Shown one piece after another: positions 17,180 to 64,000 of a DNA stretch of 64,000 bases. Source of the DNA: Candidatus Latescibacterota bacterium (GTDB lineage Bacteria; Latescibacterota; UBA2968; GCA-2709665). The notes under the pieces are model-generated. The model was not told the origin of the DNA. It made no database searches and worked only from the letters and a program-made list of their open reading frames with translations. A program made the position numbers and the translations under genes. Where the stretch lies: positions 160,001 through 224,000 of the forward strand of contig OZ250150.1 of NCBI GenBank assembly GCA_965237675.1, given 5' to 3'. Positions within the stretch are counted from its first letter, which is position 1. Every line of letters starts with the position of its first letter.

Positions 17180-17266
17180 TGGTGCCGAAGGTGGGACTCG
17201 AACCCACACGGGCTTGCGCCCACTGGATTTTGAGTCCAGCGCGTCTACCAGTTCCACCACTTCGGC
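17180..17266 (-). tRNA. tRNA-Leu(CAA)
   Basis: GCCGAAGTGGTGGAACTGGTAGACGCGCTGGACTCAAAATCCAG, long variable arm, GGTTCGAGTCCCACCTTCGGCACCA. Confidence 0.97.
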
Positions 17267-20578: not shown

Positions 20579-20654
20579 GGCGGCGTAGCTCAGTTGGCAG
20601 AGCAGTGGAATCATAATCCATGGGTCGGGGGTTCAAGTCCCTCCGCCGCTACCA
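20579..20654 (+). tRNA. tRNA-Met(CAT), elongator type
   Basis: GGCGGCGTAGCTCAGTTGGCAGAGCAGTGGAATCATAATCCATGGGTCGGGGGTTCAAGTCCCTCCGCCGCTACCA; TTGACA-17-TATTTT promoter at 20533-20561. Confidence 0.95.
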
Positions 20655-49401: not shown

Positions 49402-49434
49402 AAGACACCGATTCGCCTTTACCGGTTCAGTAAA
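49402..49434 (-). promoter_or_regulatory. Conserved GWxTD upstream motif, copy A (ECF-like promoter)
   Basis: TTTACTGAACC-N15-GTGTCTT. Confidence 0.7.
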
Positions 49435-49565
49435 ATGTGGATCTGATTTGAAGACACGGTCGAATGGACGCAAGGCACTGTATTCGTTTTGCCAGAACTC
49501 ACATCCTTGTTTGAATCCGGCCGCTCTCGGCCTGTTTCACAAGATCTGAATTTATGAAATGCTCG

Positions 49566-49594
49566 TTGACATAAACCGGGGGCCAAGGTATATT
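49566..49594 (+). promoter_or_regulatory. Sigma70 promoter of SDR-GNAT-lipoprotein genes
   Basis: TTGACA-17-TATATT. Confidence 0.75.
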
Positions 49595-49680
49595 GATTTA
49601 GGGTTGTAAGATGTTATTAATTGGCAACGTAGCCGATGGCTATGGGCAATTTCGACCAGACGACACCAAAGGAGTTTTCG

Positions 49681-50469
49681 ATGCGGTTAAAGGGGAAGGT
49701 CGCCTGGATTACAGGCGGCGGCGCAGGTATTGGCAGGGCCGCGTCAATGCGGTTCGCGACGGAGGGCGCGAAGGTGGTTGTACTCGAAATGGACCAGGCG
49801 CGTGGGCAGGCCGTCATTGAATCGATCCACCGGGCGGACGGCGAGGCGGCGCTCGTGGTGGGCAGCGCAACAGATGAGGCGGACGTGAACCGCGCGATCG
49901 AAATGGCCATGAAAAGGTATGGCGGCCTTGATATTCTGGTGAACAATGCCTATTATTGCCATGGTACTCATGTCCTGGAGATCGAGCCGGAATTATGGGA
50001 CCGAAATATCGAGGGATGCCTGAAGAGCGCCTATCTGTGCAGCCGGGCGGCGCTTCCGCATATGATCCATCGCGGTGCCGGATCGATTGTGAATATATCG
50101 TCCGTCAATGCGATCATGTCGTATGGCGAAAGTGCGTATAGCGCGGCAAAGGCAGGCGTCATTTCACTCACGAAAACAATGGCGGTGGATTACGGCCCGG
50201 AGGGGGTGCGGGTGAATGCAATCTGCCCGGGAACCATTGACACGGAAGGGTGGCAGCCCGTACTGGAAAAGGATCCGGAAATATTCGAACGCATTGCGCA
50301 GGTCTATCCCCTCAAGCGCGTCGGAAAACCCGAGGAAATCGCCAACGTCGCGCTCTTTCTGGCCTCGGACGAGGCATCGTTCGTTACCGGTGCGGTTGTT
50401 GTCGCCGATGGGGGCGTGACATCGGGAAATCCGGCTTTTCTGGATCATGTAGCGGGTAAACTCTCGTGA
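49681..50469 (+). CDS. Short-chain dehydrogenase/reductase
   Basis: TGGGAGIG, LVNNA, YSAAK, VRVNAICPG, VADGG. Confidence 0.95.
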   Translation: MRLKGKVAWITGGGAGIGRAASMRFATEGAKVVVLEMDQARGQAVIESIHRADGEAALVVGSATDEADVNRAIEMAMKRYGGLDILVNNAYYCHGTHVLEIEPELWDRNIEGCLKSAYLCSRAALPHMIHRGAGSIVNISSVNAIMSYGESAYSAAKAGVISLTKTMAVDYGPEGVRVNAICPGTIDTEGWQPVLEKDPEIFERIAQVYPLKRVGKPEEIANVALFLASDEASFVTGAVVVADGGVTSGNPAFLDHVAGKLS

Positions 50470-51404
50470 GCATAACCCTTCGAGTGCGCGATGCGTCCGT
50501 TTCAATTCAGGATCTCGTGGACTTGATGGCGCGTTGTGCCGACGGGGGTGGAGACGTGACGCCGCCAACCATGGAGACCCTCGAAAATCTGCGTAGTGAC
50601 GAGATTGTGCTGGCGTTCGATGGGCCGACGCCCGTGGGTGTCTGCTCGCTTTCATTGGACGGAGGTAGCGGATACGCGGTGCTGAGATTCCTGGGAGTCC
50701 TCCCCGAACAACGCCGCGCGGGTGTGGGACGCCGGCTCCTGGTGTACGCCGAGGCCGTCGCCGGGGAAAAGGGGCACGAAGCACTGCGGACGGGCACGAA
50801 CATCGCCAGCGACGACGTTGCGGCGGTTCGACTGCTTGAACGGACAGGCTGGAAACCCATGTTCGGCGCGGGGTTGCGAATGTGGCGTGAACTCACGGAC
50901 CTTCCCGAGGCGAAACCGCCGCCGGGGTACCGAATCAGGACTTACGAAACGGGCGACGATTCGGCATTCGTTCGGATCAAGAATGCCGCTTTCTTGAGTG
51001 AAGGCGGCGGCCGGGCGTGGACGGAAGTGGACTTCCAGAAAGAATATCTCGACTCACCGTATTTCGAGCCGGCGCGGGTCCTGTTTGCTATTTGCAACGG
51101 TGAACCCGTGGGCACGACCACGGCTTGGACGGCGATGAATTGGGGCAAGGAAGTCGGTCTGATTCACTGGGTGGCGGTTGTACCGGAACACCGGAGAAAA
51201 GGTTTGGGGTGGGTGTTGAACGTCCGGGCGGTGCATAAATTGAAGGAACTGGGGTACGGGGATGCGATCCTGAACACCAGCGAAACGCTGGAATCGGCCG
51301 TTCGCCTGTACCACCGGCTGGGTTTTGAGGTGGTTGTCCGGCGCGCGGTTTACGAGAAGCCGCTGGGTGGAGGTCGCAAACCGTCCTTCATTTCACAGAA
51401 TTGA
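50466..51404 (+). CDS. Tandem GNAT acetyltransferase (MshD-like)
   Basis: Two motif-A repeats: GVLPEQRRAGVG and AVVPEHRRKGLG; AVRLYHRLGF. Confidence 0.88.
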   Translation: MSITLRVRDASVSIQDLVDLMARCADGGGDVTPPTMETLENLRSDEIVLAFDGPTPVGVCSLSLDGGSGYAVLRFLGVLPEQRRAGVGRRLLVYAEAVAGEKGHEALRTGTNIASDDVAAVRLLERTGWKPMFGAGLRMWRELTDLPEAKPPPGYRIRTYETGDDSAFVRIKNAAFLSEGGGRAWTEVDFQKEYLDSPYFEPARVLFAICNGEPVGTTTAWTAMNWGKEVGLIHWVAVVPEHRRKGLGWVLNVRAVHKLKELGYGDAILNTSETLESAVRLYHRLGFEVVVRRAVYEKPLGGGRKPSFISQN

Positions 51405-51446
51405 ACGCTGCAGCGTGGAATCTGGCCGGGTGAGAGGCTGACGGAA

Positions 51447-51965
51447 ATGAAGGGGCGGCTGGGAATACTATTGATCTTCTGCCTGGGCTGTGGATCGTCG
51501 GATCCCGTAGGGGTCGTTGAACCGAGACCCGACGCCACGGGTGTGATGGTGTCGGTTGCGGTATTGGATCTGAATACGTACCTGGTAAACGTCTCGCGAA
51601 CCTACGAAACGGTGAATCTGATGAATGCCGAATTCGGGTCCATCACCCAGGGATGGTCGGGCGGCGTGGTTTCGAGGTACTGGACACGGCAGTTCATGTC
51701 GAATTTGATCGCCCGTTTGGAGACTTTGCAGGTGCAGGTACGGGACATTCGGCCGAACGATAGCGAATTGCGGCGGATTCACGCCAGCTACGAGCAGGGG
51801 CTGGCCACCTTCCGCGAGGCGTTTGACGCATTTGTTAACCTGATCGATTTCCCTACGTCTGAGGGCATCGATGGCGTGAACCTGCTGATATTCAGAGGCA
51901 ATAAGCGCATAGACGAGTTTCAGCTAATGTTGAGCAATCTTGCAGGACGACAAATTCGGTTCTAA
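51447..51965 (+). CDS. Hypothetical lipoprotein
   Basis: Lipobox-like LLIFCLGC; helical body. Confidence 0.7.
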   Translation: MKGRLGILLIFCLGCGSSDPVGVVEPRPDATGVMVSVAVLDLNTYLVNVSRTYETVNLMNAEFGSITQGWSGGVVSRYWTRQFMSNLIARLETLQVQVRDIRPNDSELRRIHASYEQGLATFREAFDAFVNLIDFPTSEGIDGVNLLIFRGNKRIDEFQLMLSNLAGRQIRF

Positions 51966-52260
51966 TCCATTTGTAGCACTTCTGAGGCCCGGATTCGATC
52001 CGACTTCGGTGTGTTGGCAGGGAATTCAAGAATAATCCCCTATTCGATCCTGTCAGCATCCTCTCCCCGTCTTACATTTCATCGCGATGCTTTTCCATCG
52101 ACGTGTAATGATCGCGCTAGCGGACATGCCATCGCAGTCTGCCCGCCCTGGTATGACGCAGACCGATCCGACGATTCCGTCAGAGACAGGAATACTCGTG
52201 AAATATTGTCCAGGCTCCATTCTTCGACCGAACGCAGGCGGCACTGTGCCGAGAGACTTT

Positions 52261-55200
52261 ATGCGCGCGGCAGTCCTGGCCGTGATCGCCCTATGCATCC
52301 TTGGCGCGGCGGCGCCGGCGTGGTCCCAGAACCCGGAACTGGTGCTGTCCGTGTCATCGCTGACTTTGACGGAGGGTTCCAGCGCCAGTTATACGGTTAA
52401 GCTGGAAGCAGAGCCGACGACCACCTTAACGGTGTACATTACCGGTACGTCAGGAACAGACCTTACATTGAACGAAGAATCGCTGACGTTCACCACGGAC
52501 AACTGGAACTCCCCGCAGACGGTAACGGTGTCGGCAGGTGAGGACGGAAACGAGGTCAATGATATCGAGAAGCTGAAGCACATTGTATTTGGAGATTGCT
52601 GCTGCGGACGCCTTAGCGGCGAAATTCCCGTTACCGTGGTCGACAACGAAAGGTTCAATCTGGTGCTTTCGCCTGCCTCGCTGACGGTCGGCGAGGGTGA
52701 AAGCGCCACCTACACCGTCAAGCTGGCGTTGCAACCGACGGGAAACGTGACCGTGACCATCGGCGGTACTTCGGGGACTGACCTTTCGTTGAACAGATCC
52801 ACCCTGACGTTCTCCACCGGCAGCTGGAATTCCCCGCAAACGGTGAGGGTCACCGCGCGCCAGGACGAGAACCGAAGTCATGACAGCGAGACGATCACAC
52901 ACACCGCCTCGGGCGGCGGCTACGGGTCGGTCAGCGAGGATCTCCCGGTTACCGTGACGGACGACGACGTGCCCGATCTGGTGTTTTCGCCCGCCTCGCT
53001 GACAGTCGGCGAGGGAGAAAGCGCCACCTACACGGTCAAGCTGGCGGCACGACCCGATAGTGACGTATCTTTGGACGTAGACGCTTTTTCCGGAGATAAC
53101 CTCACCCTGGACAAGTACGAACTGACGTTCACCACCAACAACTGGAACAACCCCCAGAGGGTGAGAGTGACCGCAGGCCATGACCCTGACGGGGCCAACG
53201 AAAATGCAGGGGTGTGGCACGCGGGCTCGGGCGGCGGCTACGGGTCGGTGTTCAAGTTCATCCACGTTACTGTGACGGACGACGATACACCGGATCTGGT
53301 GTTGTCGGAGCGTTCGCTGACGATCAACGAAGGAGAACATACCACCTACACCGTGAAGCTGGCAATCGTGCCGACGGGCAACGTGACGGTGACCATCGGC
53401 GGCACCTCGGGGACCGACCTTACATTGGACAAGGATGAACTGACGTTCGACACCAACACCTGGAACTCCCCGCAGACGGTGAGGGTCACTGCCGACACGG
53501 ATCCGGACGGAACCAATGACAGCGAGACGCTCACGCACACGGCGTCGGGCGGTGACTATGGGTCGCTGAATAAAGACCTGCCCGTTACCGTGACGGACAA
53601 GGACGCACCCAATCTGCTGCTGACACCCGGCTCGCTGGCGATCGACGAGGGCGACAACAGGACCTATACGGTCAAGCTGACGACCCTGCCCACGGGCGAC
53701 GTGACGGTGACCATCGGCGGCACCTCGGGGACGGACCTTTCGTTGGACAAGAACACCCTGACGTTCACCACCAATACCTGGAGCTCACCCCAGACGGTGA
53801 GGGTGACCGCCGGCACGGACCCGGACGGAGCGAATGACACCGCCACGTTGACACACAGGGCTTCGAACGGTGGCTACGGAGGGGTAAACAAGGACCTTCC
53901 CGTTACGGTGACGGACCCCGACCCGGTGGGGCTGGTCCTGGCGCCGGAATTGCTTGGGATCAACGAGGGCGGAAATGAAACCTACACCGTGAAGCTGGCG
54001 ACGCAGCCGACGGGTCGCGTTACAGTGACCGTCGGCGGCACCGCGGGGACCGACCTTTCGTTAAACAGGTCGTCCGTGACGTTTACCACAACCACATGGA
54101 ATTCGCCGCAGACGGTGAGGGTCACGGCACGCACGGATCCGGACAACATTAATGACAGCGAGACGCTCACGCACACGGCATCGGGGGCCGACTACGGGTC
54201 GGTGAGCAAGGACCTTCCCGTTACCGTGACGGACAAGGACGTGCCCAATCTGTTTCTGTCACCGGGCTCGCTGACGATCGACGAGGAAAACAACAGGACC
54301 TATACCGTCAAGCTCGCGACACAGCCCACGGGTAACGTGACGGTGACCATCGGCGGCACATCGGGGACCGACCTTACATTGGACAAGGATGAACTGACGT
54401 TCGACACCAACACCTGGAACTCCCCCCAGACCGTGAGAGTGACAGCTGACCAGGACCCGGACGGGGCGAATGACAGCGAGACGCTCACGCACAGGGCCTC
54501 GGGCGGCGGCTACGGGTCGGTGAGCAAGGACCTTCCCGTGACCGTGACAGACAATGATACGCCGGATCTATTGCTTTCGGAGCGATCGCTGACGATCAAC
54601 GAGGGAGAAAATACCACCTACACCGTAAAGCTGGCGACACAGCCGACGGCCACCGTGACGGTGACCATCGGCGGCTGGTCGGGGACCGACCTCAGTTTGA
54701 ACAATTCCGCATTAACATTCACCAGAACAACCTGGAACTCCCCGCAGACGGTGAGGGTCACAGCCGACACGGATCCGGACGGAACCAATGACAGCGGGAC
54801 ACTCACGCACACGGCGTCGGGCGGTGACTATGGGTCGCTGAATAAAGGCCTGCCCGTTACCGTGACGGATAAGGACGCGCCCAATCTGTTGCTGACGCCC
54901 ACCTCGCTGACGATCGACGAGGGTAGCAACGAAACTTATACCGTCAAGCTGGCAACGCTGCCTTCCGCCGACGTGACGGTCACCATTCGGATTCCGTCGG
55001 GGACGGACCTTTCGTTGGACAAGAAAACCCTGACGTTCACCACCAATACCTGGAGCTCCCCTCAGACGGTGATAGTGACCGCCGGCCAGGATCCGGACGG
55101 GGCGAACGATACCGCCACGCTCACGCACACGGCCTCGGGCGGCGACTACGGATCGGTGAGGGCCGACCTCTCGGTTACGGTGACCGACAACGACCCGGTG

Positions 55201-58200
55201 GGAATGGTGCTGTCTCCGGTGTTACTGGAGGTCAACGAAGGCGAAAGCGCCACCTATACCGTCAAATTGGAGACACAGCCCACGGGTAACGTGACCGTGA
55301 CCATCGGAGGCTGGCCGGGGACCGACCTTTCGCTGAACAGGACCTCCGTAACGTTCACCAGGTCGACCTGGAACTCCCCGCAGACGGTGAGGGTCACGGC
55401 ACGCACAGACGCGGACATGGCAAATGACAGCGAGACGCTCACGCACACGGCCTCGGGGGGCGACTACGGGTCGGTAACCAAAGACCTTCCCGTTGCCGTG
55501 ACGGACAAGGACGTGCCCAATCTGTTTCTGTCGCCTGGCTCGCTGACAATCGACGAGGGAGACGACAAGACCTATACCCTCAAGCTGGCGACGCTGCCCA
55601 CGGGTGACGTGACGGTGACCATTGGTGGCATTTCGGGAACCGTCCTTACATTGGACAAGAATGAACTGACGTTCACCACCACGACATGGAACTCCCCCCA
55701 GACCGTGAGGGTAACGGCTGACGAGGACACGGACAAGACCGATGACAGAGAGACGCTCACGCACACGGCGTCGGGCGGCGGCTACGGAGGGGTCAACAAG
55801 GACCTCCCCGTGACCATTAACGACAACGATAAGCCGCGCTTGATCCTCTCGCGGAATTCGCTGACGATCACGGAGGGCGGAAGCGGCACCTACACGGTAA
55901 AACTGGCGACGCCGCCTGCCGCCGGCGTGACGGTGACCATTGGCGGCACCTCGGGGACCGACCTTTCCTTGAACAATGCCACACTGACGTTCGACACCAA
56001 CACCTGGAACTCTCCGCAGACGGTGAGGGTGACGGCCGGCCAGGACACGGACACGACGAATGACAGCGCGACGCTGACGCACATGGCCTCGGGCGGCGGC
56101 TACGATTCGGTGAGCAAGTACCTCCCCGTCACAGTGACGGACAACGATACGAGCCAGAGGCGGGTGGTGACAGCGGTGCAGGTGTCGTTTGCGCGCGCGA
56201 CCTACACGGCGACGGAAGGTGGTGGCACGGCGACGGTGAGCCTGTCATTGAACAAGAACCCCAGGCGTAAAGTGGTGGTCCCGCTGACGGTCACGATGAA
56301 TGGCGGCGCAACACTGGACGACTACACCGGTGTGCCGGAAAGCATCACGTTCTATAACGACCAATTGAAAAAGACCTTTGACGTCACCGCCACCGACGAC
56401 GCCGTAAACGATGACGGCGAGAGCCTGACTATCGGCTTCGGCAGATTGCCAAGTGGGGTCAGCACGGGCAGTCATGCGACGTCACTGATAAACCTGCGGG
56501 ACAACGACGCTGTGGTCAGAGTGTATTTCGACCAGCCGACCTATACGGCTGAAGAGGGTGGCGCCGCCGCAACCGTGCTCGTACGCCTGAGCAAGGATGC
56601 CATACGCGACGTAACGATTCCATTGACAGCGGTTTTTGAAGGCGGCGCGACGGAAAACGACGTTGTCGGTGTGCCGGAGCAAATCACCTTTGGTCGTGGA
56701 GAATCGGAAAAGACCTTCAATGTCACCGCCACGGACGACGACGTGGATGACGACGGTGAGAGCCTGACACTCGGGTTCGGCACGTTGCCAGACGGGTTCG
56801 ATCCAGGCAAGACTGCCACGACTTCAGTCAATATCAGGGACAACGATGACCCGGTGGTTACTGTATCTTTCGGCCAGGCGACCTACGAAGGTGTGGAAGG
56901 CGGCGGCGCCGTGGTCGTTCGAGTGCGTTTGAGCGCGGATCCCGAGCGGCAGGTCTCGATTCCATTGACGGCGACACCGGGTAACGGCGCCACGGCAAGT
57001 GATTTCTCCGATGTGCCCGAAAGCATTGTCTTCACCAGCGGCCAGACGGCAAAGGACTTCGTTGTTACGGTTATCGATGACGACATAGACGACGACGGCG
57101 AAACCCTGACTTTCGCCATTGGCACCCTGCCCGAAAGGGTCAATGTGGGAAGTCCCTCAACGACTGTCCTGCGCCTTTCCGACAATGACGATCCGGTGGT
57201 AACGATCTCATTTGGCGCGGAGGAATACACGGCCGAAGAGGGCGGCCAGGCGGCAAGTATAACCTTGAGTATGAGCGCAGACCCCGAACGCCGGGTCACC
57301 ATTCCACTGAACGTGACTCCTGGTAACGGCGCCACAGAGGCGGACTACAGAGTATCGCCGAACGTGACCTTTGACAGCGGCGAAACGGAAAAGACAGTTG
57401 AACTGGTCGCGGTTGATGACGACGTCGACGATGACGGCGAGACCGTGGCGCTCGCATTTGGCGCCCTCCCGGCCATGGTCAACGCCGGTGACCGCACGAC
57501 CGCCACCGTTACGTTGACCGACAACGACGAACGCGGTGTGATCGTATCGGTTTCGGAATTGGCGATTCCCGAAGGGGATGCCGGCAGCTATTCGGTAGCG
57601 CTGCGCAGCAGGCCGACAGGTACGGTTACTATAAATGTGACGGGTATGGAAAATACCGACGTGTCGGTAGACCCGTCTCAATTGACGTTCACGGCGCAGG
57701 ACTGGGACGTTCCACAAGAGGTCGGAGTCCGCACGCAGGACGACGACGACGCGGTCGCGGATCGGGTGACGTTAAATCACGTGGCGAGCGGAGGGGACTA
57801 CGGGAACGTGGTGGCGCCGTCCGTCGTCGTAACGGTCATCGAAGACGAAATGCCGGCGATGACCGTGGGGAACCAGCGTGCCACAGAAGGCGCGGGGGCG
57901 ATGGTATTCACCGTTACACTGGATATGCCGAGCAGTGAAGAAGCCACCGTGAAATACGCAACCTCCAACGGCACGGCATTGGCAGGCGAGGACTACAGGA
58001 CAACGCAGGGCACCCTGCGCTTTGCCGCGTTGCAGACGCGGCAGACGATCAGCGTGTCGCTCATCGACGATAGTGTAGATGAAGACCCGGAGACGTTCAC
58101 ACTGTCGCTGACCGAGCCTGTGAATGCGACGCTGAGTGTCGGCAGGGCGGTTGCTACGGGAACGATAGATGACAACGATGCCGCATCGGAAGCGCTGGAG

Positions 58201-59661
58201 GTATTGCTATCCAGTGTGGGAAGGATGGTGGCGACGGATGTGATTCACGTTGTCAGCGGGCGATTTGATCAACCCGAAGGGGTTGATCCTGCGCTCACGC
58301 TGAACGGCTTGCCGGTGGAATTGAATGGCGGGAAGGAACCTGGTAGCGCGAAGGATGCCACGGCTCCGGGCAACACCTTGACATGGGGATCGGATGCGGA
58401 TATCTGGATGCCGCTGGAAACGCAGATTTCCCACCCCTATGGTCTAAGCGTACCGGCGTCTCATCTGCGCGAGGTCGATGTCTGGGATGTGCTGTCGGAC
58501 AGCGACTTCGAGATGCCGCTTAAGCGCGCGGACAGAGTCAGTTCCTGGATCCTCTGGGGACAGGTCACACTGACCGGTTTTTCGAGTCTGCCGAACGCCA
58601 TACGCAGGATGGACGCGGATGGCTTCACCGGCTATCTCGGCGTTGAGTACCGGATGCGAGAGAATCTGCTGTTGGGAATGGCGCTGACGCACAGCAGGGG
58701 CGATCTGGACTATAACAACGTTAACTCCCGAAACACACTCGTGCCCAGCGATTATGGCATTACCAGTCTCCTGCCCTATGTCCACGTGCAAGTACGCCCC
58801 AGGTTGGGTATTTGGGGATTGAGCGGCTATGGGCGCGGCAGCTCGGATATGAGGGACCTGATCGGGTTCCACGACGCGGACATGACACTGCTGATGGGGG
58901 CGGCAGGGGCCAGGCAGGACCTGTCCAGGTGGCATGGCATCGGCTTCGCGGTGAAGGGAGACGCCTTTTTCGTGCGGACCGAATCTGATGGGAGCGCACG
59001 GTTGCCGGAAATTCGTGTCGATGCCAAGCGGGTACGCTTGATGATTGAAGGCCGGCGGACCCTCGCCTTCGATCCCGTATTGCGTCTGACGCCGAGTGTT
59101 GAAATTGGCGGGCGATGGGACCGGGGGCATATTGAGAATGGTGCGGGCATAGACGTAGGCGGTGGCATTCAAATCGCACACGCAGAGCGCGGCGTCAGCC
59201 TGTCCACACGCTTGCGATATCTGTTGGTACACCAGCAGGACGCCCGCGAGGAATGGGGCGTCAGTCTGATTTTGCGGGTCGATCCGGGATTGGCCAGACA
59301 GGGAGTTGTGCTGGATGTATCGCCGGTTTGGGGTGCGCAGGGCAGTGGTGCGGAAGCCATATGGCGTAGCCGGGCGGGCCTGGGGATTGGGAGTCTGGCG
59401 GGGCCGGAGCGTGCGACGAACGTGAGACCGGACCGCATGGAATTCAATTTTGGATACCGGCTGTTGACGCAGGAAAGGAAAGCGTCGCTGACCCCATACG
59501 GTGGGTGGACAACGGGTGTCCTCGGTTTTCAGAGGTATCGCGTAGGGAGCCGGCTGGTTGTTGGAAGGGGTGTAGATATGAATCTCGAAGGTATGCGCCA
59601 GAAAAGTGCAGCGGGTCCCGGCGCCTATGGGTTGATGCTGCGAGGGCGGATGAGATGGTAG
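52261..59661 (+). CDS. Giant surface adhesin: ~18 Ig-like/Calx-beta repeats plus C-terminal autotransporter beta-barrel
   Basis: Signal peptide MRAAVLAVIALCILGAAAPAWSQ; 106-aa repeats (LTFT..WNSPQTVRVTA..D.D); Calx-beta-type DDDVDDDGE motifs; barrel with PSVEIGGRWDRG and terminal Trp. Confidence 0.88.
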   Translation: MRAAVLAVIALCILGAAAPAWSQNPELVLSVSSLTLTEGSSASYTVKLEAEPTTTLTVYITGTSGTDLTLNEESLTFTTDNWNSPQTVTVSAGEDGNEVNDIEKLKHIVFGDCCCGRLSGEIPVTVVDNERFNLVLSPASLTVGEGESATYTVKLALQPTGNVTVTIGGTSGTDLSLNRSTLTFSTGSWNSPQTVRVTARQDENRSHDSETITHTASGGGYGSVSEDLPVTVTDDDVPDLVFSPASLTVGEGESATYTVKLAARPDSDVSLDVDAFSGDNLTLDKYELTFTTNNWNNPQRVRVTAGHDPDGANENAGVWHAGSGGGYGSVFKFIHVTVTDDDTPDLVLSERSLTINEGEHTTYTVKLAIVPTGNVTVTIGGTSGTDLTLDKDELTFDTNTWNSPQTVRVTADTDPDGTNDSETLTHTASGGDYGSLNKDLPVTVTDKDAPNLLLTPGSLAIDEGDNRTYTVKLTTLPTGDVTVTIGGTSGTDLSLDKNTLTFTTNTWSSPQTVRVTAGTDPDGANDTATLTHRASNGGYGGVNKDLPVTVTDPDPVGLVLAPELLGINEGGNETYTVKLATQPTGRVTVTVGGTAGTDLSLNRSSVTFTTTTWNSPQTVRVTARTDPDNINDSETLTHTASGADYGSVSKDLPVTVTDKDVPNLFLSPGSLTIDEENNRTYTVKLATQPTGNVTVTIGGTSGTDLTLDKDELTFDTNTWNSPQTVRVTADQDPDGANDSETLTHRASGGGYGSVSKDLPVTVTDNDTPDLLLSERSLTINEGENTTYTVKLATQPTATVTVTIGGWSGTDLSLNNSALTFTRTTWNSPQTVRVTADTDPDGTNDSGTLTHTASGGDYGSLNKGLPVTVTDKDAPNLLLTPTSLTIDEGSNETYTVKLATLPSADVTVTIRIPSGTDLSLDKKTLTFTTNTWSSPQTVIVTAGQDPDGANDTATLTHTASGGDYGSVRADLSVTVTDNDPVGMVLSPVLLEVNEGESATYTVKLETQPTGNVTVTIGGWPGTDLSLNRTSVTFTRSTWNSPQTVRVTARTDADMANDSETLTHTASGGDYGSVTKDLPVAVTDKDVPNLFLSPGSLTIDEGDDKTYTLKLATLPTGDVTVTIGGISGTVLTLDKNELTFTTTTWNSPQTVRVTADEDTDKTDDRETLTHTASGGGYGGVNKDLPVTINDNDKPRLILSRNSLTITEGGSGTYTVKLATPPAAGVTVTIGGTSGTDLSLNNATLTFDTNTWNSPQTVRVTAGQDTDTTNDSATLTHMASGGGYDSVSKYLPVTVTDNDTSQRRVVTAVQVSFARATYTATEGGGTATVSLSLNKNPRRKVVVPLTVTMNGGATLDDYTGVPESITFYNDQLKKTFDVTATDDAVNDDGESLTIGFGRLPSGVSTGSHATSLINLRDNDAVVRVYFDQPTYTAEEGGAAATVLVRLSKDAIRDVTIPLTAVFEGGATENDVVGVPEQITFGRGESEKTFNVTATDDDVDDDGESLTLGFGTLPDGFDPGKTATTSVNIRDNDDPVVTVSFGQATYEGVEGGGAVVVRVRLSADPERQVSIPLTATPGNGATASDFSDVPESIVFTSGQTAKDFVVTVIDDDIDDDGETLTFAIGTLPERVNVGSPSTTVLRLSDNDDPVVTISFGAEEYTAEEGGQAASITLSMSADPERRVTIPLNVTPGNGATEADYRVSPNVTFDSGETEKTVELVAVDDDVDDDGETVALAFGALPAMVNAGDRTTATVTLTDNDERGVIVSVSELAIPEGDAGSYSVALRSRPTGTVTINVTGMENTDVSVDPSQLTFTAQDWDVPQEVGVRTQDDDDAVADRVTLNHVASGGDYGNVVAPSVVVTVIEDEMPAMTVGNQRATEGAGAMVFTVTLDMPSSEEATVKYATSNGTALAGEDYRTTQGTLRFAALQTRQTISVSLIDDSVDEDPETFTLSLTEPVNATLSVGRAVATGTIDDNDAASEALEVLLSSVGRMVATDVIHVVSGRFDQPEGVDPALTLNGLPVELNGGKEPGSAKDATAPGNTLTWGSDADIWMPLETQISHPYGLSVPASHLREVDVWDVLSDSDFEMPLKRADRVSSWILWGQVTLTGFSSLPNAIRRMDADGFTGYLGVEYRMRENLLLGMALTHSRGDLDYNNVNSRNTLVPSDYGITSLLPYVHVQVRPRLGIWGLSGYGRGSSDMRDLIGFHDADMTLLMGAAGARQDLSRWHGIGFAVKGDAFFVRTESDGSARLPEIRVDAKRVRLMIEGRRTLAFDPVLRLTPSVEIGGRWDRGHIENGAGIDVGGGIQIAHAERGVSLSTRLRYLLVHQQDAREEWGVSLILRVDPGLARQGVVLDVSPVWGAQGSGAEAIWRSRAGLGIGSLAGPERATNVRPDRMEFNFGYRLLTQERKASLTPYGGWTTGVLGFQRYRVGSRLVVGRGVDMNLEGMRQKSAAGPGAYGLMLRGRMRW
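52657..56150 (+). repeat. Eleven 318-bp intragenic tandem repeats (plus a diverged first unit)
   Basis: Unit starts at 52657, 52975, 53293 ... 54565 ... 55837. Confidence 0.9.
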
Positions 59662-59689
59662 GTGGGGAGAAGCAAATTCAACATCCACT

Positions 59690-59885
59690 TCTCCCAAATT
59701 CCCTGCCTCCGGCGGGTTCCTTTTGACACGACCAAAAGGAATCAAAAGTCGCCGCTGGGCACGGAGCCTGCCATATGCATAGCGCGAATCGCCTCAGAGG
59801 TGGTTCGCGGAAAAGCAGCCCCGCGGCGTCTGAGCGGCGCCGTTCTTTTTGGCCCTTTTTCTTTGGCGAGAAAGAAAAAGGGCGT
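59690..59885. repeat. Structured intergenic repeat with two T-rich/A-rich hairpins
   Basis: ttccttttgacacgaccaaaaggaa and ccctttttctttggcgagaaagaaaaaggg. Confidence 0.5.
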
Positions 59886-60009
59886 AAGAAAATAGGGATT
59901 TAGATCCTCCGCCCAGGGCGGGTCCTTTCAGGACCCTTTTTTTATTTTTCGTCAGACGACGGGCCTGGTGGCCGTTCTTTTTTGGGAAGAGTACTTAATC
60001 TTCACTAAA

Positions 60010-60042
60010 TTTACCGAACCCGAGCCCTACAACATGTGTCTT
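60010..60042 (+). promoter_or_regulatory. Conserved GWxTD upstream motif, copy B
   Basis: TTTACCGAACC-N15-GTGTCTT. Confidence 0.7.
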
Positions 60043-60132
60043 ACGATTAGGAACGGGCACATGCCGAATCTCCGTGGCAGGCGGCGCCTTATGCCGACCG
60101 ACCTCGACCAAACCATCAACTTCAAGGCAGGG

Positions 60133-62346
60133 ATGGATTCTATCGGGACTGCTTTCCTTCTCGTGGTCGTTATATTCATTCCACTGGTTTCACCCGCGGC
60201 TGAATCGGATTCGCTAGAGTCGCTTGAGGCGGCGACGCATTCTGATCCTAAGGACGGGCGCGCATGGGTGCGCCTCGGGCACGCCTATCTTGATGCGGGT
60301 GACTACAAGCGGGCAAAAGGGGCGTTCAGGAAGGGCATTCGAAGTAACAGTCGGGCCGATGGATACAACGGTCTGGGGCTGGCTTACATGCGCGATCCGG
60401 GCTCCAGGGCGGTGAACAGGAAGGCTTTCGAGTACTTCAGGCGGGCGCTGGCGGCCGATCCCGGCTATGCCGAGGCCAGAATGAATATCGCCCGCCTGCA
60501 GATACAGTTGGGGCAACTGGACGCCGAGAAGGCCCTGAAGGAAGTCATCAAGCACCATCCGGGCTATGCGCCCGCATACCTCGCCCTTGCGGAATGGTTT
60601 CCGGATGGATACGAAGACCGGAGCGTGGTCCTGTATGAGCGGTACCTGGAGTTGCGGCCGGACGACCTGGACGGACACTACGGTCTGGCACTGGCATATA
60701 CCGGGCAACACCGATATGTTCGGGTGCTTGCAATTACGAACCGGGTACTCAAGCAACATCCTGGGTCCGGCCGTTTCCTGCCGCTGGCTGCGCAAGCATA
60801 CACCGCACGAGGTGACGCTGATAGAGCTCTGCAGCTGTTTGACACCTATTTTGGACTCATATCCGAGACAGAGCTGAGGCTTTATAAGGATGTTTCACTG
60901 ATCGCGTCTACCAAGGAGGTGAAAGCGTACAGCTCCAAGCCTTCCGAAGAGGCGGAACACTGGCTGAAGGCGTTCTGGCGCCAGCGGGATCCAACGCTGG
61001 TTTCCGGGGGAGCGCACCGCCAGGCGGAGCACTACCGGCGTATCTGGTACGCACGCACCTATTTTTCCGACAAGATGCATCCCTGGGACCGGCGGGGGGA
61101 GGTTTATATCCGTTACGGTGAACCGGACTATCGTTCCAGATCCGACCGGACCAACAAACCTGCCAGCCTGGATGTACAGTCGGTGAAGGAATTGATCTAT
61201 TTCGTTTTGAATGGGGTGGAGACCTTTGACGTCGAAAAGTACGACCTCGCGTTCACCGATCCGATATATCCAATATCGAGGTTTCTTCTCGGCGGAAACC
61301 GGGTCGCCTGGGAATCATGGGTTTACACCGACGTCGGCGGTGGGATTGAATTTGTGTTCACGGATGAAGCCGGAAACGGAAAGTGGGACTTCGCGCTGCC
61401 TCCACCTATTGATCCGATAAACCCCGACCTTCGGAAAATCAGCCGACTCATGAAGTACAATCCCGCGGTCGTATTTAAGGATGTGGTCTACAGGACGCCG
61501 GATTATTTCGATCTGCCTCCGGGTGTAGAGCCACTGGAGTTCTACTATGACCTTGCCACCTTTGACGGTGGGCCGGGTCGCACCAGGATGGAGATATATT
61601 TCGGCATCCCCGTGGAACACATCACAACCAGGGAAATCGAAGATCGCCTGCTGTCCCAGGTTGAATATACAGTTGCCGTGGTTGACGAGGAAGGTGAGAT
61701 GATTCACCGGGAACGGGACCGGCTCGCGTTTGCAGGACAGCAGAACGCGAAACCGGGTACGTTCGTGCCCCAGATAATAACGGTACGGTTGCCGCCGGGG
61801 GCCTATCGGCTCGCCGTTCAGTTGACGGATCTCTATTCGGACAAGTGGGGGCTGTATCATCAGGATCTGGATGTGCCGGCATATGGAGATTCTCTCAAGC
61901 TGAGCGACCTGGAATTGGCGTGGGGAATATCGAAGACCCGCGGAGCCGCCAAATTCCAGAAAGGCGATGTCTCGGTGGTCCCCATGCCCAGCCGGAGTTA
62001 TGGGAGAGGCCAGAGCGTATTCATTTACTATGAGGTGTATCACTTACTGAAGGATGAGTTCGGTCAAACCCGTTACCAGGTGACTTACACGCTGCGGCAA
62101 AACATCAGGCGGGGATTCAACCCGTTCGGCGCCCTGGCGGCGAAAATACGCCAGTTTGTCCGCAAAGCGGAACCGGAGTTGGTGATAAGCTATGAGCGAG
62201 CGGGGACGGATTCCTCCGAGCCCATCTACTTTGAGCTGGATACGAAAAAGGTAAAGCCGGGTCTTCATCAGATAGAAGTCACGGTTAAAGATCTGAATTC
62301 AAGCACTTCGGCTTCCACGAACGCGGTATTCCGGTTGGATGGATAG
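60133..62346 (+). CDS. Exported TPR + GWxTD-like domain protein with C-terminal Ig-like domains (start uncertain, 60061-60133)
   Basis: Signal peptide, TPRs, FWRQRDP, EHYRRIWYA, PWDRRGEVYIRYGEPD, WESWVY, IEFVFTD. Confidence 0.88.
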   Translation: MDSIGTAFLLVVVIFIPLVSPAAESDSLESLEAATHSDPKDGRAWVRLGHAYLDAGDYKRAKGAFRKGIRSNSRADGYNGLGLAYMRDPGSRAVNRKAFEYFRRALAADPGYAEARMNIARLQIQLGQLDAEKALKEVIKHHPGYAPAYLALAEWFPDGYEDRSVVLYERYLELRPDDLDGHYGLALAYTGQHRYVRVLAITNRVLKQHPGSGRFLPLAAQAYTARGDADRALQLFDTYFGLISETELRLYKDVSLIASTKEVKAYSSKPSEEAEHWLKAFWRQRDPTLVSGGAHRQAEHYRRIWYARTYFSDKMHPWDRRGEVYIRYGEPDYRSRSDRTNKPASLDVQSVKELIYFVLNGVETFDVEKYDLAFTDPIYPISRFLLGGNRVAWESWVYTDVGGGIEFVFTDEAGNGKWDFALPPPIDPINPDLRKISRLMKYNPAVVFKDVVYRTPDYFDLPPGVEPLEFYYDLATFDGGPGRTRMEIYFGIPVEHITTREIEDRLLSQVEYTVAVVDEEGEMIHRERDRLAFAGQQNAKPGTFVPQIITVRLPPGAYRLAVQLTDLYSDKWGLYHQDLDVPAYGDSLKLSDLELAWGISKTRGAAKFQKGDVSVVPMPSRSYGRGQSVFIYYEVYHLLKDEFGQTRYQVTYTLRQNIRRGFNPFGALAAKIRQFVRKAEPELVISYERAGTDSSEPIYFELDTKKVKPGLHQIEVTVKDLNSSTSASTNAVFRLDG

Positions 62347-62503
62347 TCACGGACCGCTCCCATCGCTCGACGATATTCGACGAAGATCGGGACCGGTCGA
62401 ATCACGAATTTGAAACTGAAATGGTTTGATATTGCCGTCAGAGACGGAAGGGAGGGCCTCGCGGCCCTTTTTCTTTGTGTAAGGATGGAGAATTATCCCG
62501 GAT

Positions 62504-62536
62504 TTTACCGAACCCGGGCTCGAGAACGAGTGTCTT
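62504..62536 (+). promoter_or_regulatory. Conserved GWxTD upstream motif, copy C
   Basis: TTTACCGAACC-N15-GTGTCTT. Confidence 0.7.
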
Positions 62537-62666: not shown

Positions 62667-64000
62667 ATGGTTCGTTTTGCATTAGCCGTTTGCCTGTTGG
62701 CGCTGTGCGCCACCCGTGTCGATGCCAGACGATCCGATCCGGCGAGGGTGGACTCGATGCTGGCCGTTGCAGCGGATACGCTGCTTCATAGGGACACGCG
62801 CGAAGCCCTGCTGAAGCGTGCGCTGAGGCACGACCGGTCTGGAAAGACAATGCACGCTCTGGCGCGGTTTTACATGGCCCAGGGCACGCCGGTATCCCGT
62901 CAGACAGCGGGCAGATGGCTGCTGCGGGCCCGGCAGCGGGAACGGAAAAACACGGAATATCTGGCAACTTCCTCTGAGTTGCTGTGGCGGTCCTTGCAGC
63001 GTCCGAACTCCTACCGAAGAGCGCTCGAGGTTCTGGCGCTGGATCCAAATCATGTCGAGGCGCTCTTCTGGGCGGGACGTTTTGTGGTCTGGTCCTGGGA
63101 GATGACCTATTTCACGGATATGCCTGATGACGACACCGAAACGATGCTCGGGAGATATTCAATCAGCGGTAGAAAAACCCTGACGTACGTTGAGTATCCG
63201 GACCTGCAAATTGACCGCGGAATCGCGTACCTGACCCGCGCCATCAGCGCGGATCCCGTCCACTGGCCGTCTCACCAGTACCTCGGGCTATCCTACTACG
63301 CAGCCGGGATGCCCGAGCCCCTCATCGACCTCTTCGAAGCCTATCGAAAGCGGCGTCCGGAGAATTGGAATGCCCACTTTTTCGTGGGCCTCGGCTATCA
63401 GATGAAGGGCGACCTGGAAGCGGCCTATCTGGCGTACGTGGATGGACTGAACCGGATGACTGAAACGGCCCGCAGGTTCATGCAGTCGATCTTTCTGATT
63501 CGAGACCCTGTTCAGGAAAAACGGGGCGGGGCGCCTCCCGGCGAAGAGGAGATCCGCAAGTTCTGGTTCGGGAAGGACCCCATGTTTTCGACTCCGGTGA
63601 ATGAGCGCTTGCTGGAACAGTGCCGGCGCGTGGCGTACTCGAACCTTCGGTTCTCCGATCCCATCAACGGGCGTGAAGGTTGGCAGACCGACCGGGGGCA
63701 GGTCTATATACGATATGGTGACCCGCGTGTCCGCTTTATGAAAGATCCCGCCAGGGGTCGGAAGGAAATATGGGGGTATGGCGAGTTTACGGTGGTGTTT
63801 TTTAATACGGTTTCGTGGGACTCCTGGCTGTTCGGATTGGCCAGGCTGGGAAATAAACGCCTGACACTCGAACAACTGGTGAAGGCGGTACCCGACATCT
63901 ATGAGCATCCTCTGCAATATGACGCCCCCTACCAGACTGCCCAGTTTCGACATGAAGACGGCACGACGCGCGTGGAAGTGTATTACGCCCTTCTGGATGA
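62667..64000 (+). CDS. Exported TPR + GWxTD domain protein (runs off the window)
   Basis: Manual translation: MVRFALAVCLLALC..., TPRs, FWFGKDP, NERLLEQCRRVAYSNLRF, GWQTDRGQVYIRYGDP, EIWGY; AAGGAG RBS. Confidence 0.9.
   Translation, partial: MVRFALAVCLLALCATRVDARRSDPARVDSMLAVAADTLLHRDTREALLKRALRHDRSGKTMHALARFYMAQGTPVSRQTAGRWLLRARQRERKNTEYLATSSELLWRSLQRPNSYRRALEVLALDPNHVEALFWAGRFVVWSWEMTYFTDMPDDDTETMLGRYSISGRKTLTYVEYPDLQIDRGIAYLTRAISADPVHWPSHQYLGLSYYAAGMPEPLIDLFEAYRKRRPENWNAHFFVGLGYQMKGDLEAAYLAYVDGLNRMTETARRFMQSIFLIRDPVQEKRGGAPPGEEEIRKFWFGKDPMFSTPVNERLLEQCRRVAYSNLRFSDPINGREGWQTDRGQVYIRYGDPRVRFMKDPARGRKEIWGYGEFTVVFFNTVSWDSWLFGLARLGNKRLTLEQLVKAVPDIYEHPLQYDAPYQTAQFRHEDGTTRVEVYYALLD

Follow-up and report, generated by a model that had tools for sequence, protein, structure and literature searches.

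A conserved two-box motif, probably an ECF sigma factor promoter, upstream of a sigma operon and a subset of GWxTD genes in a Latescibacterota genus

Introduction

In E. coli, RpoE and RseA form an autoregulated pair of extracytoplasmic function (ECF) sigma factor and anti-sigma factor, with RseB as a periplasmic third partner. In the FecI–FecR–FecA system and in the ECF/anti-sigma/SusC-like systems encoded in polysaccharide utilization loci (PULs) of Bacteroidota, a TonB-dependent transducer with a private N-terminal extension communicates with the anti-sigma factor. SigW of B. subtilis, a further ECF factor, uses CGTA in its −10 element. This article concerns a two-box motif, TTTACYGAACC-N15-GTGTCTT, that precedes three genes of the TPR-GWxTD type in a 64,000-nt stretch of DNA (hereafter the window, G000:C1:160001-224000) from an uncultured Latescibacterota bacterium with a genome of 5.6 Mb and 58% G+C. 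The motif is probably an ECF (group-4) promoter, read most likely by a 203-aa sigma factor encoded elsewhere in the genome, which would switch on its own operon together with a subset of the GWxTD genes.

The hallmarks of ECF systems set out in one article are AAC at −35, CGT at −10, a co-transcribed anti-sigma factor and autoregulation, and section 6.1 of the same article describes the regulation of RpoE (PMC8103513). According to a passage of a second article, ECF promoters have been found by the logic of autoregulation, which is also the logic applied here (PMC3817407).

Three exact copies of the motif in the window

The initial annotation, made from the letters of the window, had placed the motif at three positions, each about 90–130 bp upstream of a TPR-GWxTD gene and in the same orientation. 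A search of the window with up to two mismatches allowed returned three sites, all with zero mismatches, and 100 dinucleotide-preserving shuffles of the window gave zero matches. The motif copies, the genes behind them and the associated hairpins are as follows (scores are from a position weight matrix, PWM, described below).

49402..49434 (-): promoter copy 1, with TTTACTGAACC as the putative −35 box (GAAC core), a 15-nt spacer and GTGTCTT as the putative −10 box; exact match; PWM 39.6 bits
60010..60042 (+): promoter copy 2, TTTACCGAACC-N15-GTGTCTT; exact match; PWM 38.8 bits
62504..62536 (+): promoter copy 3, TTTACCGAACC-N15-GTGTCTT; exact match; PWM 38.4 bits
48106..49286 (-): locus 1, degraded TPR-GWxTD gene; 201-aa open reading frame (ORF), two frame breaks, internal deletion; terminator-like hairpin directly 3'
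60133..62346 (+): locus 2, TPR-GWxTD protein of 737 aa; signal-like N-terminus, TPR, GWxTD domain, two immunoglobulin (Ig)-like beta-sandwich domains
62667..64000 (+): locus 3, TPR-GWxTD gene that continues past the window end; ~679 aa in the genome
59920..59936 (+): terminator-like hairpin with T-run, closing the unit of a giant adhesin gene; 73 nt 5' of promoter copy 2
62449..62472 (+): terminator-like hairpin with T-run, closing locus 2; 31 nt 5' of promoter copy 3

Counting from the motif end, the likeliest start codons are ATG 49283 for locus 1 (118 nt), ATG 60133 for locus 2 (90 nt) and ATG 62667 for locus 3 (130 nt), and every copy shares its strand with the GWxTD gene downstream. Judged by eye, all three start codons have a purine-rich stretch on their 5' side and a hydrophobic, signal-like N-terminus on their 3' side. 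Since a hairpin lies shortly before copies 2 and 3, each gene presumably forms its own transcription unit.

All three downstream ORFs match TPR models and the GWxTD domain model TIGR04514 (cut-off 28 bits). Loci 2 and 3 score above the cut-off, with 51.0 and 57.6 bits, and locus 1 scores 25.4 bits, below it because the gene is truncated. The 201-aa ORF of locus 1 stops within the GWxTD domain, the remainder lies in another frame, a second frame break follows near the end, and ~250 residues are missing relative to locus 2 through the internal deletion. The promoter copy before locus 1 is perfect although the gene itself is a pseudogene; other genomes of the genus have intact orthologs, one of them a 460-aa open-ended ORF. 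The positions, spacing and orientation that had been claimed for the motif were thus borne out, as was the presence of a TPR-GWxTD reading frame behind each copy, but one of these genes is a broken remnant. The encoded proteins are as divergent as had been stated: loci 2 and 3 share 26% identity over 187 aa, and locus 2 and the N-terminal part of locus 1 share 43% over 169 aa.

Seven sites in the genome

The genome contains 28 matches to the GWxTD model, 27 of them above the cut-off; its relatives have 30–35 GWxTD proteins. The exact 33-nt pattern occurs four times in 5.6 Mb, and six times if one mismatch is allowed; a seventh, GWxTD-linked site carries two mismatches. In a genome scan with the PWM, these seven sites score 30.6–40 bits and the next best place 17.4 bits; the matrix was built from the same seven sites and is circular for them, so that only the score gap beneath them carries information. 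A motif match with at most two mismatches is present in 5 of 28 GWxTD upstream windows and in 1 of 3000 random windows. GWxTD genes are part of the transcription unit behind every one of the seven sites: six sites head GWxTD units and the seventh precedes an ECF sigma gene. The sites lie 64–176 nt before start codons, in a single orientation with the gene. Enrichment before GWxTD paralogs and a non-random distribution over the genome had been proposed as checks in the initial annotation, and both agree with these counts. In addition to the three copies in the window, the sites head the following units.

C1:1121866 (-): 256-aa Kelch-repeat ORF, 1151-aa GWxTD gene, Phosphodiest-family gene, 1256-aa GWxTD gene
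C1:1936174 (-): run of GWxTD genes with Kelch lipoproteins
C1:5397188 (+): 820-aa GWxTD gene, then a gene for an SLBB/Tcp10_C-repeat protein
C1:1876919-1876951 (-): ECF sigma operon; TTTATCGAACC-N15-GTGTCTT

Over the seven copies, mean pairwise identity is 0.87 in box 1 and 1.00 in box 2, compared with 0.33 in the spacer, which had been noted to differ between the window copies, and 0.28 in each 60-nt flank. Recent copying is disfavored because the boxes are so much more alike than the spacers and flanks. In a quick maximum-likelihood tree of 27 paralogs, built without the 201-aa locus 1 fragment, it takes four changes to explain which genes (six of them) have the motif directly before them. 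With shuffled labels, 370 of 500 replicates required no more than four; the motif-bearing paralogs thus appear scattered over the paralog tree. The earlier suggestion that the two boxes are selectively conserved and not recent duplicates is supported by both comparisons.

The same data bear on whether the shared sequence could be a functionless relic of duplication or a conserved part of a 5' leader RNA. The genes are indeed paralogs, and one copy precedes a pseudogene. Nevertheless, a relic is hard to reconcile with spacers and flanks at random-level identity beside nearly identical boxes, with motif-bearing genes that do not form a clade, and with boxes conserved over 15 genomes (see below); as for a leader RNA, no Rfam family is found in the motif regions, and the three 5' leaders fold no better than shuffled sequences (z −0.47, +0.42 and +1.39). 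Such an origin is therefore highly improbable.

The boxes could also be the binding site of an activator or repressor and not the promoter itself. What speaks for this is the unit at C1:1936174: a sigma-54-like −24/−12 element, TGGTAC-N5-TTGCA, precedes its site (C1:1936142) by 127 nt, next to an enhancer-binding-protein gene, indicating that other regulators act on at least one unit. Against this, the boxes are asymmetric, being neither direct nor inverted repeats, and are always 15 nt apart. A promoter fits the GAAC and GTC cores, their constant orientation relative to the gene, a location 64–176 nt ahead of start codons and the presence of a copy before a sigma gene. The other six sites, the three window loci included, have no sigma-54-like element nearby. 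A factor-binding site is therefore very unlikely, if somewhat less so than a relic. The sigma-54-like element itself is at ~C1:1936287-1936302 (-), directly 3' of the gene for the enhancer-binding protein, which has a GAF-AAA+-HTH architecture; judging from this arrangement, the GWxTD/Kelch cluster may have tandem promoters.

The sigma operon

The initial annotation had suggested a search for an ECF sigma gene carrying the motif, and there is one:

G000:C1:1876232-1876843 (-): ECF sigma factor of 203 aa, 1.65 Mb from the window, 108 nt after a motif copy

The protein has Sigma70_r2 at residues 39–107 (1e-17) and Sigma70_r4_2 at residues 140–192 (2e-18), scores 109.9 bits on the ECF model TIGR02937 (cut-off 42.9), and gave no region 1 or region 3 match in the domain search; by these domains it is an ECF (group 4) sigma-70 factor. 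Its best named models are those of SigW, with 141 bits on PRK09641 (cut-off 209) and 128 bits on TIGR02948 (cut-off 243), and it reaches 106 bits on the RpoE model TIGR02939 (cut-off 236). Equivalence to SigW or RpoE was rejected, as the scores are well under all three curated cut-offs.

The gene for a 163-aa anti-sigma factor of the zf-HC2 type (7.7e-12) starts 5 nt after the sigma stop codon. This protein has an HxxxCxxC motif, one hydrophobic span and a C-terminal tail of ~37 residues. Another 5 nt after the anti-sigma stop, a GWxTD protein of ~1111 aa with a signal-like N-terminus is encoded, followed by a 777-aa GWxTD gene. From the spacing, sigma and anti-sigma genes are presumably co-transcribed. 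By coordinates, the order of sigma gene, anti-sigma gene and the N-terminal domain of the GWxTD protein is the same in 15 of 15 genomes of the genus. In G002 alone, an insertion of ~110 nt with an inverted repeat (AAGACAGCTTC and its complement) lies between the sigma and anti-sigma genes.

The motif copy before the sigma gene suggests positive autoregulation. Of the promoter hallmarks named above, AAC is present at −35 in all seven genomic sites and in all 15 sigma-operon sites of the genus, CGT at −10 is present in part of them (see below), and the putative −10 core GTGTC is invariant in both sets. Like RpoE–RseA–RseB, the system has a two-domain sigma factor that is apparently co-transcribed with a single-pass anti-sigma factor from a promoter it would read itself, with a GAAC-type −35 and a GTC-containing −10. 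Unlike in the RpoE system, the anti-sigma factor is of the zf-HC2 (HxxxCxxC) type with only ~37 periplasmic residues, and the targets are paralogs of unknown function and not envelope-repair genes. SigW–RsiW of B. subtilis resembles it in supplying the best-scoring named models and in having a zf-HC2 membrane anti-sigma factor, whereas the −10 here is GTGTCTT and both phylum and regulon are unrelated. Sigma factors of the Fec/PUL type serve one locus each, whereas the sigma factor described here seems to serve several dispersed paralog loci. FecI-like sigma factors do not autoregulate, as stated in PMC3817407, whereas this one apparently does.

Conservation and co-distribution in relatives

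The sigma factor has a single ortholog (76–82% identity) in 14 of 14 further same-genus genomes. The best sigma match does not exceed 39% identity in 26 of 26 genomes from eight other genera of the same order, and the sigma factor is most likely genus-specific. All 15 orthologs have the motif before the sigma gene. In an alignment of these upstream regions, GAACC is invariant, the N15 spacing is constant and GTGTCTT is present in 14, with GTGTCAT in one (G007); the spacer sequence and the T-rich stretch 5' of GAACC vary. The pattern GAACC-N15-GTGTCTT gives 76 matches in the 14 same-genus genomes compared with four for reversed-pattern controls, and in the other 26 genomes 10 matches compared with 18 for the controls; all 14 same-genus genomes show the enrichment and none of the 26 does. 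The strict 33-nt form was found in 9 of the 14 and in 0 of the 26. Thus, sigma factor and motif share a phyletic range, and motif, sigma factor and GWxTD association travel together.

The content of the regulon in relatives was counted in five single-contig genomes of the genus, with 150 of the 162 GWxTD domain matches listed. Among the matches listed, 21 of 29 GTGTCTT sites lie 919–1234 nt before a GWxTD domain on the same strand, as would be expected of sites immediately 5' of such genes. The remaining eight comprise five sigma operons, which brings the sites before GWxTD genes or the sigma operon to 26 of 29, one site 3.5 kb upstream and two that are not near a listed domain, one of which (G008:3506010) is the ortholog of window locus 1. 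All three GTGTCAT sites are distant from any GWxTD domain among the matches listed.

The individual window sites have fared differently within the genus. Sites orthologous to that of locus 1 carry a variant −10, GTGTCCT. The ortholog of promoter copy 2 in G012 retains TTTAACGAACT-N15-GTGTCTT, and the sites orthologous to copy 3 in G008 and G012 have an identical spacer. In G014, the adhesin and locus 2 are absent from this place; directly behind a 172-aa lipoprotein-like ORF come a promoter like that of locus 2 and a gene like locus 3, and the region has thus been rearranged within the genus.

Beyond the genus, the relaxed pattern GAACC...GTGTC is found upstream of 8 of 80 GWxTD loci across the phylum, five of which (L077, L080, L081, L084 and L085) share pattern-site coordinates with the same-genus genomes G007, G006, G011, G004 and G014. 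Enumeration of dyads over 77 of the 80 loci gave no GAAC/GTC dyad and only signals of ortholog groups, for example ATAAA-N16-GTCAA in 17 loci.

A probable sub-family regulon

According to the proposed model, YGAACC would be the −35 and GTGTCTT the −10 of an ECF sigma promoter. An envelope signal would relieve the anti-sigma factor, possibly through the specialized GWxTD protein of the operon. The freed sigma factor would direct RNA polymerase to YGAACC-N15-GTGTCTT at seven places, with transcription starting a few nucleotides after GTGTCTT. It would amplify its own operon (sigma, anti-sigma, GWxTD and second GWxTD genes) and switch on six other units with divergent TPR-GWxTD genes at their head, the three in the window among them. 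The Kelch, phosphodiesterase-family and SLBB-domain neighbors may belong to some of these units. Overall, part of an exported 28-member paralog family would be induced together.

Several observations weigh against this model or narrow it. The motif lies within 500 nt of the start codon in only 5 of 28 GWxTD paralogs; two further paralogs have it 1.0–1.6 kb upstream, behind intervening genes, and for 16 the 12 kb upstream on the same strand contain no copy. Seven promoters for 28 paralogs point to a sub-family regulon and not to a regulon of all GWxTD genes. Promoter copy 1 precedes a dead gene. In G008, the promoter region of locus 2 has been replaced and contains no recognizable motif, yet the gene persists. 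The canonical CGT at −10 is found in only 3 of 7 genomic sites, as opposed to 14 of 15 sigma-operon sites. Across the phylum, tblastn with sigma and anti-sigma queries found no ECF gene within 6 kb of 79 of 80 GWxTD loci; with an ECF neighbor at only one of the 80, the link to a sigma factor is not general to the GWxTD family. Finally, the pairing of motif and sigma factor depends on the logic of autoregulation; the genome has ~18 ECF-type sigma matches, and sigma cascades are known (PMC3817407).

As a separate observation, the locus 2 ortholog of G008 has ~190 nt inserted just after its start codon.

The ~18 ECF-type matches and the known cascades are the points that favor an ECF-type promoter read by a different sigma factor, with the sigma/anti-sigma/GWxTD operon as merely one more target, as in a cascade. 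Yet only this sigma gene has the motif upstream, no other place in the genome exceeds 17.4 bits, the range of the sigma factor equals that of the motif (14 of 14 compared with 0 of 26 genomes), and the sigma operon itself contains GWxTD genes. Recognition by another sigma factor is therefore unlikely, though less so than a factor-binding site. Recognition by the 203-aa sigma factor is the probable reading. The initial annotation had proposed that one ECF sigma factor co-regulates the GWxTD paralogs: the ECF part of this proposal is supported by the sigma gene with its own motif copy, by the rarity of the motif and by the shared distribution, whereas the scope has to be reduced to a sub-family.

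A candidate third component

The GWxTD protein of the sigma operon differs from its paralogs in its first 366 residues (here, the N-domain), which are unique in the genome: the 28 paralogs yielded no blastp match better than E 0.7, and a tblastn search at E<=1e-3 returned only the gene itself. Among 168 Latescibacterota genomes, 16 have a match to the N-domain and 152 do not. The 16 are G000, the 14 other genomes of the genus, each with a single copy next to its sigma gene, and a further genome from a different genus of the same family (G021), in which the homolog has 38% identity. No sigma gene, anti-sigma gene or motif lies before the G021 homolog; the upstream ORF resembles a receiver-domain fragment.

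Both the N-domain and the tail of the anti-sigma factor are expected in the periplasm. In 13 aligned orthologs, the C-terminal 26 residues of the anti-sigma factor are nearly invariant, more so than the rest of its extracytoplasmic part. A complex prediction for the N-domain (13-row alignment) with anti-sigma residues 127–163 scored 0.72, compared with 0.01 for the best of three controls. In the calibration of the predictor, 116 of 157 solved complexes and 2 of 215 mismatched pairs attained this score; the counts apply only roughly here, as the prediction was made from separately built alignments. At least 76% of contacts are shared between runs; the predicted local distance difference test (pLDDT) is at least 71 for the partner and only 43–46 for the N-domain. 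Tail residues 137–162 are predicted to contact N-domain residues 78–134, where that domain is most invariant. The model supports binding of the N-domain to the anti-sigma tail, without amounting to a demonstration of it.

The predicted third partner is reminiscent of RseB and still more of the TonB-dependent transducers of the Fec/PUL systems. As with RseB, an exported third protein of the operon is predicted to hold the periplasmic part of the anti-sigma factor, but it has no sequence relation to RseB. As with the Fec/PUL transducers, the envelope protein predicted to touch the anti-sigma factor belongs to the family of the regulated targets and has a private N-terminal extension, but it is a TPR-GWxTD protein and not a TonB-dependent barrel. 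A tentative extension of the model, which we regard as possible but doubtful, is that the sigma operon encodes a new type of three-part trans-envelope device, in which the GWxTD N-domain would grip the anti-sigma helix and gate a sigma factor that induces divergent paralogs. If this is true, the transducer logic of FecA/SusC-like proteins would have been built on an uncharacterized, non-barrel family.

Structure of the GWxTD proteins and neighboring genes

An AlphaFold2 model of the locus 2 protein built from 48 sequences (pLDDT 87.1, predicted template modeling score (pTM) 0.83) has a TPR solenoid to residue ~290, an alpha/beta GWxTD domain to ~460 and then two beta-sandwich domains. A PDB sequence search for GWxTD found nothing (best E-value 0.24). 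Fold searches returned TPR proteins for the N-terminal part and generic Ig-like sandwiches for the C-terminal part; with VIA-align, residues 187–303 and 306–458 of the searched model matched Ig-like sandwiches (Z 9–11, root-mean-square deviation (rmsd) 2–3 Å over ~100 residues), and the GWxTD domain proper, residues 1–180 of that model, was barely covered. A likeness to transglutaminase/protein 4.2 suggested by Foldseek was rejected, with a template modeling (TM) score of 0.17–0.19 and an rmsd of ~21 Å; it stems from the tandem C-terminal sandwiches. A catalytic core shared with transglutaminases is unsupported, and the fold matches to the model warrant no functional or catalytic reading.

The giant adhesin that had been reported between the loci is a real ORF, and its upstream region does not contain the motif. 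The only Rfam families across the window are two tRNAs, far from the motif loci.

52087..59661 (+): giant adhesin of 2524 aa; Calx-beta, LapA and fn3_6 domains
window 17183-17266 (-): tRNA gene; Rfam match
window 20579-20651 (+): tRNA gene; Rfam match

Elsewhere in the genome, a GWxTD gene (1140–1256 aa) followed by a Kelch-repeat lipoprotein-like gene (360–397 aa) recurs as a pair in the regions C1:1920001-1938000 and 1108001-1124000, and a Phosphodiest-family gene sits between two GWxTD genes in these regions.

Significance

An autoregulated ECF regulon is in itself textbook; what deserves attention is the content of the regulon and its predicted third partner. Full-text literature searches returned no paper naming GWxTD, TIGR04514 or PF20094. 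No regulator of Latescibacterota is known to have been studied, and papers containing both 'Latescibacter' and 'ECF' concern, by their titles and the openings of their abstracts, microbial community surveys and not sigma factors. For GWxTD, a large family without a function, the result provides a first defined regulatory handle, consisting of one sigma factor, one anti-sigma factor and a 33-nt putative promoter. It also names a few paralogs that would be induced together and one paralog as a candidate sensor. Statements about an orphan domain family of an uncultured phylum thereby become testable at the bench, and the promoter would be easy to try in a heterologous host.

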